Origin: Desulfobacterales bacterium
GTDB taxonomy: Bacteria > Desulfobacterota > Desulfobacteria > Desulfobacterales > UBA5852
Length of the DNA: 64,000 nucleotides
Assembly: GCA_963674755.2 (NCBI GenBank)
Contig: CAXXVS010000003.1
Span: forward strand, 2,739,925 to 2,803,924
Direction of reading: 5' to 3'
The notes under the pieces were generated by a model. The model ran no database searches, had not been told where the DNA came from, and saw nothing but the letters and a program-made list of their open reading frames with translations. The translations under genes were made by a program, and so were the position numbers. Shown piece after piece: positions 26,262-33,525 of the stretch; the first letter of the stretch is position 1, and the number at the start of each line of letters is the position of its first letter.

Positions 26262-27119
26262 ATGAAGCAAAAGAAATTGACCCGTTTCGACCTCCAGTCC
26301 ATGAAGGAAAAGGGCGAACCTGTCGCCTGGCTCACCGCCTATGACTTTCCGACGGCGCAACTTGCGGAAGCGGCCGGCCTCGATATGCTCCTGGTCGGGG
26401 ATTCCCTTGGCATGTGCGTCTATGGGTATCCGGGAACGGTCGGCGTAACCATGGACCAATGCCTGTGCCATTGCGAGGCGGTACGGCGCGCCGCGCCGAA
26501 CACCTTTATTATCGGCGACATGCCTTTTCTTTCCTACCAGACCAGTGTTCCCGATGCCGTGACCAACGCCGGCATGTTTCATAAAAAGGCCAACGTCGAT
26601 GCCATCAAACTCGAAGGTGGGCGCCGGGTTTGCCCCCAGATTCAGGCCATTTCAGACGGCGGCATGCTCGTTATGGGGCATATTGGGCTCACGCCCCAGA
26701 GTTCCGGGCAATTGGGCGGATTCAAAGCCCAGGGGAGAACCATGGAGACCGCCCGGGAACTGATCGAGGATGCCAAGGCCATCCAGTCGGCCGGCGCATT
26801 TGCCCTGCTGGTGGAGGCGGTGCCGCCGGAAGTCTGCCGCATCATTCGGGACACCCTCACCATACCGGTCTACAGTATCGGCGCCGGCGTGGAAGCGGAC
26901 GGACAATTGATGATCGTCAGCGATCTTCTGGGGGTATTCCAGGCCTTCACTCCCAAATTCGTTAAAAAATACGCGGATGTCGCCGGTGTGATGACCGATG
27001 CTTTTGCGGCGTATGTCAAAGATGTCCGCGATCGCTCGTTTCCCGCGGCCGAACACACCTACCGAATGGTGGCGGGTGAACTGGAGAAACTCGATTCCTG
27101 CCTGAAAACGAATCAATAG
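26262..27119 (+). CDS. panB: 3-methyl-2-oxobutanoate hydroxymethyltransferase (or a paralog)
   Basis: LTAYD, LLVGDSLG, DMPFLSY, KLEGG, MGHIGLTPQ, IGAG and PKFVKKY motifs. Confidence 0.93.
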   Translation: MKQKKLTRFDLQSMKEKGEPVAWLTAYDFPTAQLAEAAGLDMLLVGDSLGMCVYGYPGTVGVTMDQCLCHCEAVRRAAPNTFIIGDMPFLSYQTSVPDAVTNAGMFHKKANVDAIKLEGGRRVCPQIQAISDGGMLVMGHIGLTPQSSGQLGGFKAQGRTMETARELIEDAKAIQSAGAFALLVEAVPPEVCRIIRDTLTIPVYSIGAGVEADGQLMIVSDLLGVFQAFTPKFVKKYADVAGVMTDAFAAYVKDVRDRSFPAAEHTYRMVAGELEKLDSCLKTNQ

Positions 27120-27132
27120 AAAGGTACGATTA

Positions 27133-27894
27133 ATGTTAATTGACGCAGAAAAGTGCATTGGCTGTGGCAATTGTGTTGCCTATTGTCCGGTTGAAGCGAT
27201 CAGCCTCAGCAAGCGACCTGAGCCGCAAAGCGCAAAAGGGAAGGATCGCCTGGCGGTCATCGATCTTGAAGAATGCGCTGAATGCGGCGTCTGCCTGCGG
27301 TCCGCCAAATGTCCGACCGACGCCATCTACCAGCAACCGCTGGTCTATCCGCGAACCGTCCGCAGCCTGATGAGCGACGTGTTGACCATTGCCGAGGAGT
27401 CTCAGATTTCCGGCCGGGGCACCGAAGAGATGAAGACCAATGAGGTGACCGGCCGGTTCAAGCCCGGAATCGTCGGTGTGGCCATCGAGGTCGGACGACC
27501 CATAACGGGCACACGCATGGTCGACGTGGAAAAGATCGCCATGGCGGTCTGCGCCCTGAATGTCGATTTTGAGTCGTGCAATCCGGTGACCAGCATGATG
27601 ACCGATCCCCGGCGCGGAAAGTTCAGGGACGATCTGCTCAATGAGAAGGTGCTCTCCGCCATCCTTGAGTTTGCCGTGAAGCTGGAACAGCTGCCCGAAT
27701 TGTTTTCAATCTTGAAAAAAGTGGAAAAGGAGATCGATTCGGTCTTCAGTCTCGATCTTGCCTGCCGGCTGGATGCGGACGGCTCCAATCCCACGCGGCC
27801 TTATATCGCAGACGCCGGACTCTGGGTCGCGCCGAATGGGAAAACCAATGTCGGTCTGGGACGGCCGCTACTCGTGGAGGATGAACAGAGATGA
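27133..27894 (+). CDS. 2x[4Fe-4S] ferredoxin-domain protein with uncharacterised C-terminal domain (copy 2)
   Basis: CIGCGNCVAYCP and CAECGVCLRSAKCP. Paralog of 10837..11559. Confidence 0.88.
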   Translation: MLIDAEKCIGCGNCVAYCPVEAISLSKRPEPQSAKGKDRLAVIDLEECAECGVCLRSAKCPTDAIYQQPLVYPRTVRSLMSDVLTIAEESQISGRGTEEMKTNEVTGRFKPGIVGVAIEVGRPITGTRMVDVEKIAMAVCALNVDFESCNPVTSMMTDPRRGKFRDDLLNEKVLSAILEFAVKLEQLPELFSILKKVEKEIDSVFSLDLACRLDADGSNPTRPYIADAGLWVAPNGKTNVGLGRPLLVEDEQR

Positions 27895-28523
27895 CCCATA
27901 CACTGCATCGATTGGGCACGGATGAAAGTATACTGAAACAAGACTTTGTAATGCTGGCGATGCCGTCCAAGGATATCAACCATGTCGGATCCGCGCCGAA
28001 ACTGAGACGCTTTTTTGAAATTGCCTTGGAAGCGGGTGCGATAAAAATAGGCGATTGTCGTAGCGGCAATGAGTACTATCAGGGCGGTGTCGATAAGATT
28101 CTGGAAAATGTCGAAGACCGTGCCGTCATCCACGCTGTTTTCAAGGACAAAGACGCGGTTATTGCCGCGTTGAAGCAGTTGAAAAAAGAAGATCTGGGAA
28201 TGTCGATCGTGGTTTCCGGACTTTTCAGTGAGGTCGACACGATCTGCCAATGCGCCGACCTAAAGCCGCACACGATTAACCAGTCGCTGGGGCGCTGGGG
28301 CAAAACGGATAAACTGCCCCAAACCGAGATCGTTGAAATTCAAACGATGTGCGGCCATGGAATGGTTTCGGTCAATCTTATCAACAAGGCCGTGGATCGG
28401 ATCAAGGCCGGTAAGACAACGCCTGAAAAAGCGGCCGAAACGCTTTTCAAACCCTGCATGTGCGGCATTTTCAATCCCCACCGGGCCGCATTGTTGCTCC
28501 GGTCGCTCGCTTCGGGGGAATGA
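27891..28523 (+). CDS. Conserved hypothetical protein with MCGHGM and CxCGIFN motifs (copy 2)
   Basis: ATGA overlap with the upstream gene. Paralog of 10203..10832. Confidence 0.87.
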   Translation: MTHTLHRLGTDESILKQDFVMLAMPSKDINHVGSAPKLRRFFEIALEAGAIKIGDCRSGNEYYQGGVDKILENVEDRAVIHAVFKDKDAVIAALKQLKKEDLGMSIVVSGLFSEVDTICQCADLKPHTINQSLGRWGKTDKLPQTEIVEIQTMCGHGMVSVNLINKAVDRIKAGKTTPEKAAETLFKPCMCGIFNPHRAALLLRSLASGE

Positions 28524-28569
28524 GAAGAACATTTTGCCGTCGTAGCATGTAACGCTAAAATCTGACCTC

Positions 28570-28700
28570 GAATTTTGCTCCCGCTGCTTGCCGCGGCGGG
28601 ATCAGAATTCCGCTGATCCGTGCAAAGCGCCAGGCAGAGGCTGGAGGTCGGAGCCGGAATTCCTAAGTCCCCGGCAGCTTGCTGCCGGGATTGGAATTCC
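28570..28700. repeat. Pair of related GC-rich hairpins (REP/MITE-like)
   Basis: 28570-28610 GAATTTTGCTCCCGCTGC-TTGCC-GCGGCGGGATCAGAATTC and 28656-28700 GGAATTCC...CCCGGCAGC-TT-GCTGCCGGG...GGAATTCC. Confidence 0.5.
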
Positions 28701-28790
28701 AGTGTTTTGCTGCTTTAGTCGTCGCGCGGACCCCCCGCCGGATCCCCTAAGCGCTTTATCCTCAACGTTAAATTACCGACAACCAGTCGC

Positions 28791-28925
28791 AAAACTTGTC
28801 GACCCCCTTTGTCAGGATTTTCTGCCAAACCCTTCCCGGATGATAACCGCCTAAAAAAGCGGCCACCCCTTGAGGTGTACCGCTTTGTTGTTAAACTTGA
28901 TGGAGGGTTGGAGCGAGCGGATTTC
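28791..28925. repeat. Degenerate direct repeat of the tRNA-Pro 3' end, terminator and flank (att-like scar)
   Basis: AAAAAAGCGGCCACCCCTTGAGGTG is identical at 28853-28877 and 33399-33423, with weaker similarity on both sides. Confidence 0.8.
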
Positions 28926-28961
28926 GCTTGCTGAACGGTCGTTTAACGATGGAGGTCTTTC

Positions 28962-30140
28962 ATGAATGCTGCCTCATCAACGGTAATTGAAACCAAAATC
29001 AATGCCTTTCAGAAAATCCATGCCGAGTTTAAAGACATTTTAAAGCACGAGAAGTGTCGTACCTGTTCATGCCTGCATGCCGACGTGCTGAATATTCTTC
29101 TCGAAAAGATCAGGACATTTCGAAAAAGCGAAGCGGATCGTCGTTTGGTCGTGATCGAAAATGATTTCGAGCGCTGGGCCAATGATGCCGACATGTTGAA
29201 GATGCATGGCTGACTGGGGTGCCGCCCCTGTCTGCCGGTTCCGGCATACAACACCTTCAACGCGCTATTTGATGGCCTCAATGGGGAAGCTTATGCGCCC
29301 GCTCCGCCCTTGCGGACCGAGCGAATCCGGCCGGATGAATTTGCGGCCGATAACTGGCCGGTGCAGCCCGGGGATTATGTCGTGTTAAATCCCAAAAAAT
29401 CGGCGGCCATAGCTGTATTGGGAGGCGTCGATTTCGATGGGCCGGCATCGGGCTTGGTTGGATCCGAGATCGCCATCATGGGCGGCATCACCACGGAAAA
29501 CCTGGGTGTGGAGCACCTTGTCAAAAACATCATCGCGAATCCCTTCATCCGCCATCTGGTGATATGGGGCGAGGATGTGGACGGTCATCGGCCCGGCGAT
29601 GCGCTGCTTTGCTTGTCACACAACGGCATTGATAAGCCCGGGAGAATCATCGGTGCCCATGGGGCCAGGCCGGTCTTGAAGAACATCACGGACCAAGAGG
29701 TTGCCCATTTCAGGCGGCAGATTACGATTGTTGATTTGATCGGCAGGAAAGAAGTGGACGACCTGACCGGACAGTTTGCCGCGTTGCGGCGCCGGCCGGT
29801 CCAACCTTACGAGGCCGGCCTCAAAGTCGACTCGGTCGAGATCCGGAGGGCCGCGCCCGCCCGGCGCCTGAAACTCGATCCGAACGGCTATTTTGTCGTC
29901 ATGGTGATGAAGAACAGGGAACATCCTTTGCTGGTGGAACATTACGGCAACGACGGCATTCTCCGAAACCTGATCGAAGGCAAGGATGCCGCGAGTATCT
30001 GTGCCACATTGATTGAGAAGAACCTTCTCTCCCAACTGGACCATGCGGCTTACCTGGGCCGGGAGCTGGCCAAAGCCGAGCTGTCCATCCACATGCAATC
30101 CCGCTATACGCAGGACCGGGCGCAGGGCGAATTGCTTTAA
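28962..30140 (+). CDS. Predicted selenoprotein (392 aa, Sec84): Cys/Sec-rich N-domain + MtrA-like corrinoid-binding domain + DUF4346-like domain
   Basis: ORFs 28962..29213 and 29310..30140 are in one frame, separated only by TGA 29211-29213. Read-through gives HG-U-LGCRPCLP. GGAGG RBS at 28951. MtrA-like TENLGVE/IIANPFIR/GH/NGID..GRIIGA.GA motifs and DUF4346-like LDPNGYF...HAAYLGRELAKAE. Confidence 0.82.
29218..29255 (+). promoter_or_regulatory. Bacterial SECIS-like hairpin
   Basis: TGT-C-TGCCG-[GTTC]-CGGCA-T-ACA (29229-29250), apical loop starting with G 24 nt after the UGA, plus possible GGTG/CACC lower pairing. Confidence 0.65.
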
Positions 30141-30448
30141 GTTGCCCGACCACAACGCAGGACAAGTAAGCAAGGCGTCAATAATCTTGTCGGCATAGTT
30201 TTGACAACCCCCTGAATAATTGCTTAAATGCCCAAGATGTTCGGCCATCCGACGATCCACATCGCCCACCTCATATCAGGGTGCCCGCTGTGGACAAAAA
30301 GCAGATGTCAGAGCAGGACATATGCTCCAAGTTCATCCCCCAGCCATTTCCGACGCCGGCTGGGACCTCCAGACCCAAATCCGTGAGGAAGTCACCTTCA
30401 CCCAGGGCCTCATCATTGTCCGGGGTAAATTTATAGAAGGAGTCCATC

Positions 30449-31336
30449 ATGCCTGAAATCACCCGCCAGAGAGTTGGAGAGCTTGTCAGAGGCGTTTTCC
30501 AGATTCTGATGGAAAATCCTGAGGGTCTGAAGGCGAAAGAGGTTATTCAAAAGCTCGAAGCCCTTGTCCCACCAACCCCATTCGAAGACTCGGTCTATCC
30601 GAACAACCCGTCAGTCAGACGCCGTGATAAGATCGTCCGCTTTTCGACAATTAATCCGGTGAAGGCAGGATGGATGACGAAAGATAGGGGGCTTTGGTCC
30701 ATCACCGAGGACGGCATAAAGGCCTTTGATGAATTCACTGTCCCTGAGACATTCGCAAGGGAAGCGGGGCGCCTGTACAAGAAATGGAAGGATCAACAGC
30801 CCGATGAGGAAGAGGTCCCAGATCCCGACGAAGGTGAAACCGGCGCCGCACTGACGCTTGAGGAAGCCGAGGAAGCCGCCTGGAGCGAGATTGAAGCGCA
30901 TCTGAGCGAAATGAACCCATATGAGTTTCAGGATTTGGTGGCCGGTCTACTAAGGGCAATGGGGTACCATGTTGCTTGGGTTTCACCACCAGGACCGGAC
31001 AAAGGGCTGGACATTCTCGCCCATACGGACCCGCTTGGGATTGCCGGAGCAAGGATAAAGGTTCAGGTAAAACGCCATGCTGACCGTGCTCCTGTCCAAG
31101 ATATACGCTCATTCATGGCCATCTTGGGTGACGGTGATGTGGGTATTTTCGTTTGCAGCGGCGGTTTCACCAAGGACGCTGAGCAGGAAGCACGGGGGCA
31201 GGAAAGGCGCCGAATCATGCTTTTGGATGCCCGCCGACTATTTGACCTGTGGGTTGAGCATTACGAGAAGATCCCAGAGCGGCAGCGGCGCCTTATGCCT
31301 TTGAGACCGATCTATTTTCTTGCGCCTGATGAATGA
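30449..31336 (+). CDS. Mrr-family (type IV, modification-dependent) restriction endonuclease
   Basis: N-terminal winged-helix-like region (GWM...RGLWSITEDG), acidic linker, Mrr catalytic domain PYEFQDLVAGLLRAMGY...DKGLD...VQVKR...GIFV...FTKDA. Confidence 0.88.
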   Translation: MPEITRQRVGELVRGVFQILMENPEGLKAKEVIQKLEALVPPTPFEDSVYPNNPSVRRRDKIVRFSTINPVKAGWMTKDRGLWSITEDGIKAFDEFTVPETFAREAGRLYKKWKDQQPDEEEVPDPDEGETGAALTLEEAEEAAWSEIEAHLSEMNPYEFQDLVAGLLRAMGYHVAWVSPPGPDKGLDILAHTDPLGIAGARIKVQVKRHADRAPVQDIRSFMAILGDGDVGIFVCSGGFTKDAEQEARGQERRRIMLLDARRLFDLWVEHYEKIPERQRRLMPLRPIYFLAPDE

Positions 31337-31400
31337 GACGGCTGTTTACATTCACTCTTAAATAGTCTCCTATTAAACGAATGGGAAAAAGGAAGAAAGC

Positions 31401-32672
31401 ATGATCACACGGATCCAAGCATTAAATTATCGATGCTTAAAGTACGTAGACCAAGCTTTGGGTCCGTTTCATGTCCTTGTCGGCCCCAATGCTACGGGTA
31501 AGACTACATTTCTTGATGTGGTTGGGCTTCTTCATGATGTTGTAAATAATGGCCCAGCCCAGGCTCTCAACGAGCGAACAAGAGACTATAAAGATTTGCT
31601 ATTTGGTGGCACTGGCAATTGTTTCGAATTAGCTGTTGAAGCTCAAATTCCAGAAGATCGTAGAAGGAAAATAGAGAAGCCTGAATTAGATACAGCTCGA
31701 TATGAACTCTCTTTGGGATTTTCTGAGGGTTCGGAGGAGGCATCAATTCTCGCTGAGAAACTGCTGATCCTCAAGTCAAAGCCAAAAGAAAGAGTTTGTC
31801 AAACCGAACTTTTTCCATGTTCAGTTGATCCACCTAAAACCATCATATCTCCTAAAACCGTTATTGGGGCCAAGACTATTCTGAATAAGATGCCGGGAGG
31901 AAATGATAATTTTCAACCAGAAACAGAAAGTGCAAAAGGCAAACGATGGGTCTATTCTTTTAAGCTCGGCCCAGGCAAATCATCGCTTGGTAATTTACCA
32001 GAAGATGAAGAGAAGTTCCCTGTCGCAACTTGGTTTAGAGACCTTCTTGGTGAAGGCGTGCAGCGCTTCATTCTTAATAGTACCTTAATGAAGAAGGCCA
32101 GCCCTCCAAGCAAAACGAAGGGTTTTCTTACCGATGGTTCAAATTTGCCTTGGGTAATTGCCAGGTTAAAGTCGAGATCACCCGAGCTTTATAAGGACTG
32201 GATAAGCCATTTACAAACTGCTTTACCTGATTTGGAAGGGATCAAAACGATAGAACGAGAAGATGATAGACACTGCTATTTGGTGTTTAAATATAAGGGT
32301 GGATTTCAAGTTCCATCTTGGGTCGCATCAGATGGTACTTTGCGACTATTGGCCCTCACCTTGCCAGCATATATGGGCAACTTCAGAGGTGTGTATCTTA
32401 TTGAAGAGCCCGAAAATGGTATACATCCAAAGGCTGCAGAAACTGTATTTCAGTCCCTTTCATCTGTTTACGACGCCCAAATTTTGCTTGCTACACATTC
32501 ACCGGTCATCCTTAGCCTTATTGACAAAGATGAGGTGAAGAAAGTGCTCTGTTTTGCAAAGACACCCCAAGGGGCAACCGACATTGTTACAGGTGATAAA
32601 CATCCAAAGCTTAGAGATTGGACCGGTGATCCAAATATCTCTCTGCTATTTGCCGGCGGAGTACTCGGATAA
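31401..32672 (+). CDS. ABC/AAA_21-type defence ATPase (MADS MAD3-like)
   Basis: Walker A GPNATGKT, signature ASDGTLRLLAL, Walker B/D-loop LIEEPENGIHP, switch ATHSP; visibly AT-richer DNA. Confidence 0.85.
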   Translation: MITRIQALNYRCLKYVDQALGPFHVLVGPNATGKTTFLDVVGLLHDVVNNGPAQALNERTRDYKDLLFGGTGNCFELAVEAQIPEDRRRKIEKPELDTARYELSLGFSEGSEEASILAEKLLILKSKPKERVCQTELFPCSVDPPKTIISPKTVIGAKTILNKMPGGNDNFQPETESAKGKRWVYSFKLGPGKSSLGNLPEDEEKFPVATWFRDLLGEGVQRFILNSTLMKKASPPSKTKGFLTDGSNLPWVIARLKSRSPELYKDWISHLQTALPDLEGIKTIEREDDRHCYLVFKYKGGFQVPSWVASDGTLRLLALTLPAYMGNFRGVYLIEEPENGIHPKAAETVFQSLSSVYDAQILLATHSPVILSLIDKDEVKKVLCFAKTPQGATDIVTGDKHPKLRDWTGDPNISLLFAGGVLG

Positions 32673-33295
32673 TGGATCTTGTGGCTCTCGTGCCTGATCA
32701 AGATTATGAGAAAGCTCTTGAGGGATTATTTCTGAGGCATCAGGCTCTTGGGATACGGCCTATTACCTTTACCTACTATCGCCATCCCAATCGTGATGCG
32801 GGATGCAGAGCTAAGTGTACCTCCTTTCTTCGGCCTTTTATAGATCAATTTGATTATGCTCTCGTTATGTTCGACTTTGAAGGTTCAGGGGCTGAAAACC
32901 ATGCTCGGGAACACATTGAAATTGGCATCGAAACTGACTTAGCCCGTAATGGTTGGGCTGAACGCTCTGCAGTCATTGTTGTTGAGCCAGAAATAGAGGC
33001 TTGGGTATGGAGTGACTCCTGTTCTGTCGACGAAATCTTGAATTGGCGAGGGCACCAGCCAGAAATTCGGACAATGATAAAGGATCGAACTGCTTACTGG
33101 ACAGACGAGAACCCGAAGCCTCACAGACCGAAAGAGGCGCTGAGATGGGCATTGCGGCATGCTGAAAGACCAAAGCCTTTTTCGTCTGCAATATTCAAGG
33201 ACTTGGCCACAAAGGTGAGTTTCAATCGTTGTATTGATCCTTCATTTGACAAGTTAAGGACCACTCTGACAGCTTGGTTTGGAAATGAGGTGTAA
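32672..33295 (+). CDS. ATPase partner protein (MADS MAD4-like / DUF4276-TOPRIM-like)
   Basis: TAATG coupling to the ATPase. DLVALVPD, ALGIRPI, HPNRDAGC, VMFDFEG, EPEIEAWVW, PKE and CIDPSF motifs. Confidence 0.7.
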   Translation: MDLVALVPDQDYEKALEGLFLRHQALGIRPITFTYYRHPNRDAGCRAKCTSFLRPFIDQFDYALVMFDFEGSGAENHAREHIEIGIETDLARNGWAERSAVIVVEPEIEAWVWSDSCSVDEILNWRGHQPEIRTMIKDRTAYWTDENPKPHRPKEALRWALRHAERPKPFSSAIFKDLATKVSFNRCIDPSFDKLRTTLTAWFGNEV

Positions 33296-33398
33296 ATATA
33301 GGGGTACTAAAAAATCCCGGCGGTACACGTCGACAAAATGTCGGCCTATTTGTCAAGTTTCAAGACAAACCACGCCCGGACCTGAAGAACCCACAAAC

Positions 33399-33447: not shown

Positions 33448-33525
<78 letters not shown>

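Follow-up and report, generated by a model that had tools for sequence, protein, structure and literature searches.

The reading frame at positions 28962-30140 (+) of a 64,000-nucleotide stretch from a Desulfobacterales bacterium (contig CAXXVS010000003.1 of assembly GCA_963674755.2; hereafter the window) is very probably one gene for a cytoplasmic 392-residue selenoprotein, in which the UGA at codon 84 would be read as selenocysteine (Sec). The frame is single and continuous, with the TGA at 29211-29213 as its sole in-frame break and no further stops or frameshifts. The complete coding sequence (CDS) opens at an ATG at 28962, 6 nt downstream of a Shine-Dalgarno sequence (GGAGG, 28951-28955, +) that can be read directly in the sequence, and closes with TAA at 30138-30140. 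If the TGA is taken as a stop, this CDS falls into an 83-aa open reading frame (ORF; 28962-29213) and a 276-aa ORF (29310-30140) in a common frame, the second being a table-11 ORF that starts at a TTG with no ribosome-binding site (RBS) upstream. Reading through gives the product ...KMHG-U-LGCRPCLPVPAYNTF..., which over a longer stretch after codon 84 runs ...KMHG-U-LGCRPCLPVPAYNTFN..., with the motif CRTCSC at residues 32-37. Each of these features had been named in the original prediction, from the shared frame and the two ORFs to the GGAGG, the TTG lacking an RBS, the CRTCSC motif and the length of 392 aa, and all are present in the sequence with their coordinates unchanged. The junction between the two ORFs is also bridged at the level of the protein family, as residues 11-390 align in one stretch across the TGA with profile positions 8-373 of the 390 in NCBIfam NF002128 (model 'tetrahydromethanopterin S-methyltransferase subunit A'); the score of 294 bits lies under the equivalog cut-off of 568.

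Consideration of the homologous site in other organisms carries most of the argument. We examined codon 84 in 85 sources: the window, four loci from the genome collection and 80 metagenome loci. The codon is TGA in 29 of these (the window and 28 others) and TGC or TGT in 41, while in 15 the site or the N-terminal domain (N-domain) is missing; the motif pattern used in the locus search admitted only Cys or TGA at this codon. The 29 TGA loci include 20 distinct downstream sequences, and all four related loci taken from the genome collection, at 64-68% identity, carry TGA. Both sides of the TGA are conserved in the 29 loci: the N-domain is retained upstream, and downstream the sequence LGC-x-PCLPVPA(Y/F)N is kept, with C87 and C90 invariant. 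The codon-84 column is likewise invariant in our 26-row full-length alignment (A3).

The protein databases give a complementary picture. When residues 1-125 were run exhaustively with phmmer against 1.84 billion representatives, 33 hits were returned, and all 15 that run through the site carry Cys there, as C-[LAP]-G-C-x-x-C; among them are the full-length proteins P0138 (370 aa) and P0152 (417 aa). Together with the 41 of 41 non-TGA motif loci, found with a pattern limited to Cys or TGA, this gives Cys, and neither Trp nor any other amino acid, as the residue in uninterrupted homologs. Eleven of the 33 hits, which are 50%-identity clusters of 78-114 aa, stop exactly at query residues 81-83, and we read them from their sequences as the footprint of gene calls halted by the same TGA. 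The rest are three shorter fragments and four unrelated repeat proteins (P0123, P0134, P0137 and P0148, the last three of which were read in sequence). A word-indexed search with residues 1-125 alone gave 65 candidates, none at E <= 0.001. When the full-length protein was the query, 119 of the best 120 database homologs proved to be shortened to 240-324 aa, as expected from the earlier claim that gene callers split the gene. Several of the shortened entries in the aligned rows start 2-7 codons after the TGA (several at the Leu codon that is the seventh after it, one at the second codon after it) and others further downstream; the forms of 302-304 aa bear the NCBI name 'DUF4346 domain-containing protein'. 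The only whole protein among these 120, P0034 (387 aa), carries Cys at the site. In the full-length Cys homologs P0034, P0138 and P0152 the two halves form one gene.

Two groups of sequences lie at the margin of this family. Six N-terminal fragments (P0127, P0129, P0130, P0132, P0133 and P0141) are 36-41% identical to the window N-domain and end in L-H-[EQKH], not in M-H-G, which suggests, on the strength of their sequences, more distant TGA-bearing lineages beyond the clade analysed here. The genes at L050:3082-3873 and in L051 encode MtrA/DUF4346 proteins 57% identical to the window protein, in which the N-domain was not detected. The match to the MtrA profile does not start before position 41 in these proteins, and in L050 the upstream neighbour lies on the opposite strand; they may be truncated copies.

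A quick maximum-likelihood tree (IQ-TREE) of 46 distinct proteins, in which long branches were flagged, places the 18 Sec rows in one group with a single label change (SH-aLRT 84), sister to the Cys form L045. This Sec group, whose members are 53-79% identical to the window protein, lies with L045 inside a 19-row clade with a support of 100.

The genome has the means to insert Sec. We found selA (604.8 bits), selB (346 bits), a tRNA-Sec gene whose anticodon is UCA and which has G73, together with two selD genes (C1:776949-777875 and C3:2083622-2084545; L023 and L024), each with an in-frame TGA in a G-U-A motif, so that the set selA, selB, selC and selD is complete. The gene selA is also present in all four of the other genomes that carry the TGA form.

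A SECIS-like apical hairpin, GU-C-UGCCG [GUUC] CGGCA-U-AC, lies at 29230-29249 (+), where SECIS stands for the selenocysteine insertion sequence. Its core UGCCG[GUUC]CGGCA (29233-29246) pairs 29233-29237 with 29242-29246 around a loop at 29238-29241, with 24 nt between the UGA and the loop, and two more pairs past a 1x1 mismatch extend the stem. This is the stem-loop of the original prediction, with its G-initiated loop and its spacing. The further claim that it fits the bacterial SECIS model was sustained in its geometry. The legend to Fig. 2 of PMC13188914 gives an apical loop of 3-9 nt, an upper stem of 4-16 bp, a G in the first two loop positions, a UGA placed 16-37 nt away and a minimum free energy no higher than -7.5 kcal/mol. 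The 4-nt loop GUUC (G first, then U), the 5-bp stem and the 24-nt spacing are all within these ranges for loop, stem, G and distance. Whether the energy reaches the limit depends on the span to which the model is applied: the 20-nt hairpin alone folds at -7.4 kcal/mol, which 3 of 200 shuffles equal, whereas the stretch of 39 nt from the UGA onward reaches -19.3 kcal/mol, which 4 of 200 shuffles equal. A second, UGA-proximal hairpin (29212-29232, +) takes in the G and A of the UGA and is present in the minimum-energy folds; in relatives it occurs in a shifted register and is less conserved than the apical hairpin, and it may have a role in the element as a lower part of it. In both selD genes of the genome the TGA is likewise followed, at about 18-20 nt, by a comparable small hairpin whose loop starts with G. 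A search of 28500-30200 with Rfam at gathering thresholds gave no match.

Constraint on the RNA is visible at synonymous sites. Aligned by codons, 16 distinct Sec-form genes, whose proteins are 53-79% identical to that of the window, show 47 invariant four-fold-degenerate columns, and only three of these use a single codon. The three are the consecutive codons 93-95 (GTT CCG GCA), identical in 16 of 16 genes, and they build the loop and the 3' arm of the hairpin. Along the entire gene, synonymous entropy is lowest in the windows that cover codons 90-100. We consider, from these alignments, that the decisive support for the element is comparative, in the recurrent TGA and the frozen synonymous sites, and not thermodynamic.

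These observations are consistent with a known course of decoding, in which the ribosome would meet the UGA at 29211-29213 and the G+C-rich hairpin 24 nt downstream within the CDS would serve as a bacterial SECIS, recruiting SelB with Sec-tRNA(Sec) so that Sec is inserted as residue 84. The sequence item placed here, between the account of the SECIS-like element and the rival readings, is ALTERNATIVES.

The same genome holds a second system that may act on UGA. On the minus strand of contig C1 (787903-791366; L002, L011 and L110), outside the window, lies a selC*-selB*-cysS* operon. Its first gene, selC*, is tRNA-Sec-like (Rfam, 57.8 bits) with a UCA anticodon, an 8-bp acceptor stem starting from A1:U72, a U73 discriminator and an encoded CCA; it is followed directly by the gene of a SelB paralog (251 bits), behind which stands a second cysS (403 bits). 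PMC5389517 describes this arrangement in Desulfobacterales and reports the decoding of opal as Cys in E. coli by a tRNA of this kind. The UGA could then be recoded to Cys, through a selC* tRNA(Cys) (UCA) charged by cysS* and delivered by SelB* to the same hairpin, either always or when selenium is scarce. The features of the second tRNA and the SelB paralog and cysS behind it agree with the published case, and the presence of selC*, selB* and cysS* makes the identity of residue 84 conditional: it may be Cys under some conditions. Nevertheless, the canonical Sec system lacks no component and is in use, with TGA in both selD genes, and if the residue were always Cys a TGC or TGT would suffice, yet TGA is kept through the 18-row group. 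The cysS copy is also full-length, covering the full 465 model positions, unlike the published CysRS* without an anticodon-binding domain (PMC5389517). We consider decoding as Cys in place of Sec improbable, while noting that it is compatible with the Sec reading, as the two may alternate.

If the TGA were instead a true stop, the frame would hold either two genes, one for a Cys-rich peptide of 83 aa and one for an MtrA/DUF4346 protein of 276 aa from TTG 29310, or a pseudogene that a nonsense mutation has disrupted. Gene callers do yield these pieces, the databases hold many products of 240-324 aa and 78-84 aa, and the MtrA/DUF4346 genes of L050 and L051 come with no detected N-domain. Against this, the 32 codons from the TGA to TTG 29310 would be untranslated, yet the first 16 are highly conserved at the protein level and include two invariant Cys; there is no RBS ahead of that TTG; the MtrA match starts at residue 128, near the presumed start, and the NF002128 alignment spans the junction. 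A nonsense mutation is unlikely to recur at the same codon in 29 sequences without further decay, and the frame is otherwise intact, so that termination at codon 84 appears very improbable. Still harder to credit, with nothing found in its favour, is an error of sequencing or assembly for TGC or TGT, a concern raised with the original prediction. Contigs from four runs were compared with this region, and none of the 23 runs listed is of RNA. The best-matching run gives a contig of depth 17 with no differences over 28940-30140, although this run may be the source of the assembly itself. A contig from a second organism has 53 differences in 1201 nt, with none at 29211-29213 among the differences listed, and 28 independent genome and metagenome loci have TGA at the same codon.

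Several observations weigh against the reading as a Sec codon with its SECIS. The search pattern would miss residues other than Cys at codon 84 in loci outside the 26-row alignment. At -7.4 kcal/mol the isolated 20-nt hairpin is marginal with respect to the model limit of -7.5, and the 65-nt fold is unremarkable (z = -1.6, with 15 of 200 shuffles as good). In 7 of the 20 distinct relatives a Pro codon is CCA and not CCG, by which the closing pair is lost; these sequences have a 6-nt loop with G second and energies of -5.2 to -5.6 kcal/mol. The stem is conserved without compensatory covariation. In the Cys clade, used as a control for the synonymous sites (16 genes, 73-96% identity), a single codon is used in 10 of 51 columns, which are scattered, and the clade is so little diverged that the control is weak. 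Finally, the selC*-selB*-cysS* operon of the genome might put Cys at the UGA. For the functional part of the reading, the neighbouring genes are not conserved, no MtrH was found in the genome, and the proposed metal or Fe-S site and methyl transfer are deduced only from the identity of the domains.

In the middle of the protein, residues 128-277 (29343-29792, +) form an MtrA-type cobamide-binding domain, which scores 124.4 bits with Pfam PF04208 (cut-off 25). A profile built from 26 full-length relatives also finds the solved structures of MtrA, 5LAA and 5L8X, with E ~1e-49. The AlphaFold model of the protein (mean pLDDT 78.8) gives, by Foldseek, matches to 5L8X, 5LAA and 9QTR with E of 5e-15 to 3e-13, target TM-scores of 0.84-0.90 (0.65 for 9qts_A) and 32-36% identity. 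In MtrA, His84 is the lower cobalt ligand and Glu54 its hydrogen-bond partner (PMC4915002); H209 (29586-29588) and E179 (29496-29498) of the window protein align with these residues, with an offset of 3 in chain numbering, and neither varies in any of the 26 rows. Sequence and model thus lend good support to a His-on middle domain that binds a cobamide, with H209 as the lower cobalt ligand. The stricter NCBIfam MtrA equivalogs are not reached (TIGR01111, 117.6 against 249; NF002128, as given above). The C-terminus is a PterinBD-DUF4346 domain (residues 305-385; 29874-30116, +; Pfam PF14251, 78.2 bits against a cut-off of 29.6), whose segment DHAAYLGRELAKAE is largely invariant over the 26 rows (D360-G366, E368, L369 and A372, with E373 nearly so).

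The window gene is the only MtrA-like gene in its genome. No match to MtrH (PF02007) was found in this genome, which is 97.4% complete, while the controls matched in two methanogens. Membership of an Mtr complex was considered and rejected, given that the genome has no MtrH and that the C-terminus is DUF4346 rather than a transmembrane helix. One metagenome locus (L086:2323-4113) has a 596-aa frame in which an ABC-transporter ATPase domain precedes the Cys form of the N-domain/MtrA/DUF4346 protein; this may be a genuine fusion, or no more than an in-frame start that lies upstream.

The N-domain (residues 1-110; 28962-29291, +) holds the two motifs C32-x-x-C35-x-C37 (29055-29072) and U84-x-x-C87-x-x-C90 (29211-29231), with the TGA codon at the first position of the second; C32, C35, C37, U/C84, C87 and C90 are invariant in 26 of 26 rows. 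No Pfam family matches residues 1-110 at curated thresholds. The AlphaFold model of the domain alone (pLDDT 86.8, pTM 0.80) is a mostly helical bundle, in which the Cys motifs stand between and after the helices. Comparison with the PDB returned generic helical bundles only: the best Foldseek E is 0.6, and the best VIA-align Z, 8.2, is to a designed three-helix bundle and within the range that is uninformative for helical models. In the ESM Atlas, residues 1-100 of the Cys homolog P0138 gave no usable feature match, and the search by structure found only other MtrA/DUF4346 clusters and unrelated helical proteins. Sub-threshold matches of the Fer4 type occur in 7 of the 26 N-domain rows with E of 0.005-0.14 (Fer4_2 in three rows, Fer4_21 in two, LdpA_Fe-S-bd in two and Fer4_22 in one, row 11 being counted twice), a weak hint in the sequences of a 4Fe-4S site; such a site takes four Cys ligands, and the domain offers six invariant Cys/Sec positions. 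The domain also exists on its own, in proteins of about 84-160 aa, and as part of MtrA proteins, some with DUF4346 and some lacking it.

Taken together, these features point to a soluble corrinoid protein that may have a methyl-transfer or redox role. The U/C-x-x-C-x-x-C motif that residue 84 opens and the C-x-x-C-x-C motif 50 residues upstream give six invariant Cys/Sec positions on the helical N-domain, followed by an MtrA-type domain that would bind cobamide with His209 as the lower cobalt ligand, and by DUF4346. The N-domain might hold a metal or an Fe-S or other redox centre that serves the corrinoid, and this centre could either re-reduce Co(II) to Co(I) or bind and activate a methyl acceptor, in an enzyme that would transfer methyl groups. 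In corrinoid iron-sulfur proteins, a cluster domain re-reduces Co(II) to Co(I). Sec probably stands in place of the first Cys because the position is chemically active. U-x-x-C and C-x-x-U motifs dominate Table 1 of PMC13188914, where a reactive Cys is what Sec usually replaces.

A more specific proposal, argued by analogy, is tentative and on balance unlikely. Beyond a module through which electrons enter by Fe-S, the N-domain would here be the acceptor site of a self-contained corrinoid methyltransferase, with U-x-x-C-x-x-C and C-x-x-C-x-C holding a soft metal(loid) or a thiol or selenol, and the selenolate either binding the substrate or taking the methyl group from methyl-Co(III). The protein would then be a metal(loid)-methylating or -demethylating, horizontally moving accessory enzyme, whose residue 84 may switch between Sec and Cys via selC*/SelB*/CysRS*.

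The surroundings of the gene vary. No conserved gene partner was found in the 27 related loci scanned, nor in the window. Neighbours of a mobile or defence type (transposase, integrase, recombinase, TumE, PIN, Fic) occur in 6 of the 27 loci, and the window has Mrr and AAA_21 as neighbours of this type. Clear metal-related neighbours occur in two of the 27, with none in the window: in L059 the gene is preceded, at a distance of 9 nt, by a P-type ATPase with HMA domains, and L086 has an ArsR-type regulator and FeoB downstream and parts of an ABC exporter, including a MacB/FtsX-type permease, upstream. Among 201 genomes of the same order the gene is present in one, the window's own. The segment from about 26400 to 33330 is absent at the DNA level from three same-genus genomes, and synteny returns at about 33330, just before a tRNA gene (33452-33525, minus strand). 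Besides the selenoprotein gene it contains an Mrr-type restriction endonuclease gene (30449-31336) and, at 31401-33295, genes for an AAA_21 ATPase and its 207-aa partner. Between 31200 and 33400 the G+C content declines to 0.43-0.47. From its sequence, this segment looks like a strain-specific island beside a tRNA gene, and the distribution of the gene among the sequenced genomes is that of an accessory, apparently horizontally moving, element.

Elsewhere in the window, two overlapping genes with an ATGA junction lie at 27133-28523. The first encodes 253 aa with an N-terminal 2x[4Fe-4S] ferredoxin domain and a C-terminal part that has no assignment; the second encodes 210 aa, with no match to a Pfam or NCBIfam family. 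The pair follows a PanB-like gene and a DUF4147/MOFRL glycerate-kinase-like gene, and further upstream are TctCBA transporter genes and two GntR/FCD regulators. A 6S RNA is found at 49948-50127, and two tandem rRNA operons (16S, two tRNAs, 23S, 5S) occupy 53620-64000, the second being cut by the window end.

The original prediction had placed the protein in a family that it did not recognise as an established selenoprotein family, and the literature agrees. PF04208, PF14251, NF002128 and any MtrA-like name are absent from all of Table 1 of PMC13188914 (2026), which gives 119 prokaryotic selenoprotein families and subfamilies. Nothing was found in the literature on the N-domain/MtrA/DUF4346 family as a selenoprotein, in a search that left aside the supplementary tables of selenoproteome papers, which could list the family. 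We conclude that the family is new to the selenoprotein catalogue, and that the recoding mechanism is a known one. Since gene callers split the gene, the six-Cys site and the true architecture are invisible in databases; recognition of the gene would add a family to the catalogue of 119 and would place Sec next to a cobamide cofactor in a bacterial protein of the MtrA type. The exchange of Sec and Cys at the N-domain site marks this site as important chemically and offers a way into the function of bacterial MtrA-like proteins. Furthermore, the gene is a natural test case for whether one UGA and SECIS can be read in two ways, because the genome holds both the Sec pathway and a candidate UGA-to-Cys pathway.

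Comparison with known systems shows where the window protein agrees with and departs from each. It shares the Rossmann-type cobamide fold, with His and Glu kept, with MtrA of the methanogen Mtr complex and its cytoplasmic homologues (5L8X, 5LAA; PMC4915002). Unlike MtrA, it is bacterial, has no membrane anchor and is encoded by a solitary gene with no Mtr partner found in the genome; it adds the N-terminal six-Cys/Sec domain and the C-terminal DUF4346, and the MtrA meander consensus GAIPF-Y/F-X-EN (from the same paper) is only partly kept, as GARPVLKN. The genome's candidate UGA-to-Cys operon has the gene order, A1:U72, U73 and UCA of the selC*-SelB*-CysRS* system of Desulfobacterales and Syntrophobacterales (PMC5389517), and differs from the case at hand in its location on contig 1, away from the window gene. 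HgcA (with a CU motif), HgcB, BtuF and a CobW-related selenoprotein, all in Table 1 of PMC13188914, are precedents for Sec in proteins that bind or handle cobamides. They belong to other families and folds (NF040863, NF040864, cd01144 and NF041053), with no sequence relation to the window protein seen in Pfam, NCBIfam or profile searches; HgcA and HgcB are analogous in logic to the proposed metal(loid)-methylating role. In decoding, the likeness is to the bacterial selenoprotein genes with an in-ORF SECIS reviewed in PMC13188914: the alignment of UGA with Cys, the small hairpin 24 nt downstream with its 4-nt loop and G first, the sel gene set and the U-x-x-C context. In the window protein this context is widened to U-x-x-C-x-x-C, in a six-Cys site that would lie on a helical bundle and not on a thioredoxin fold.

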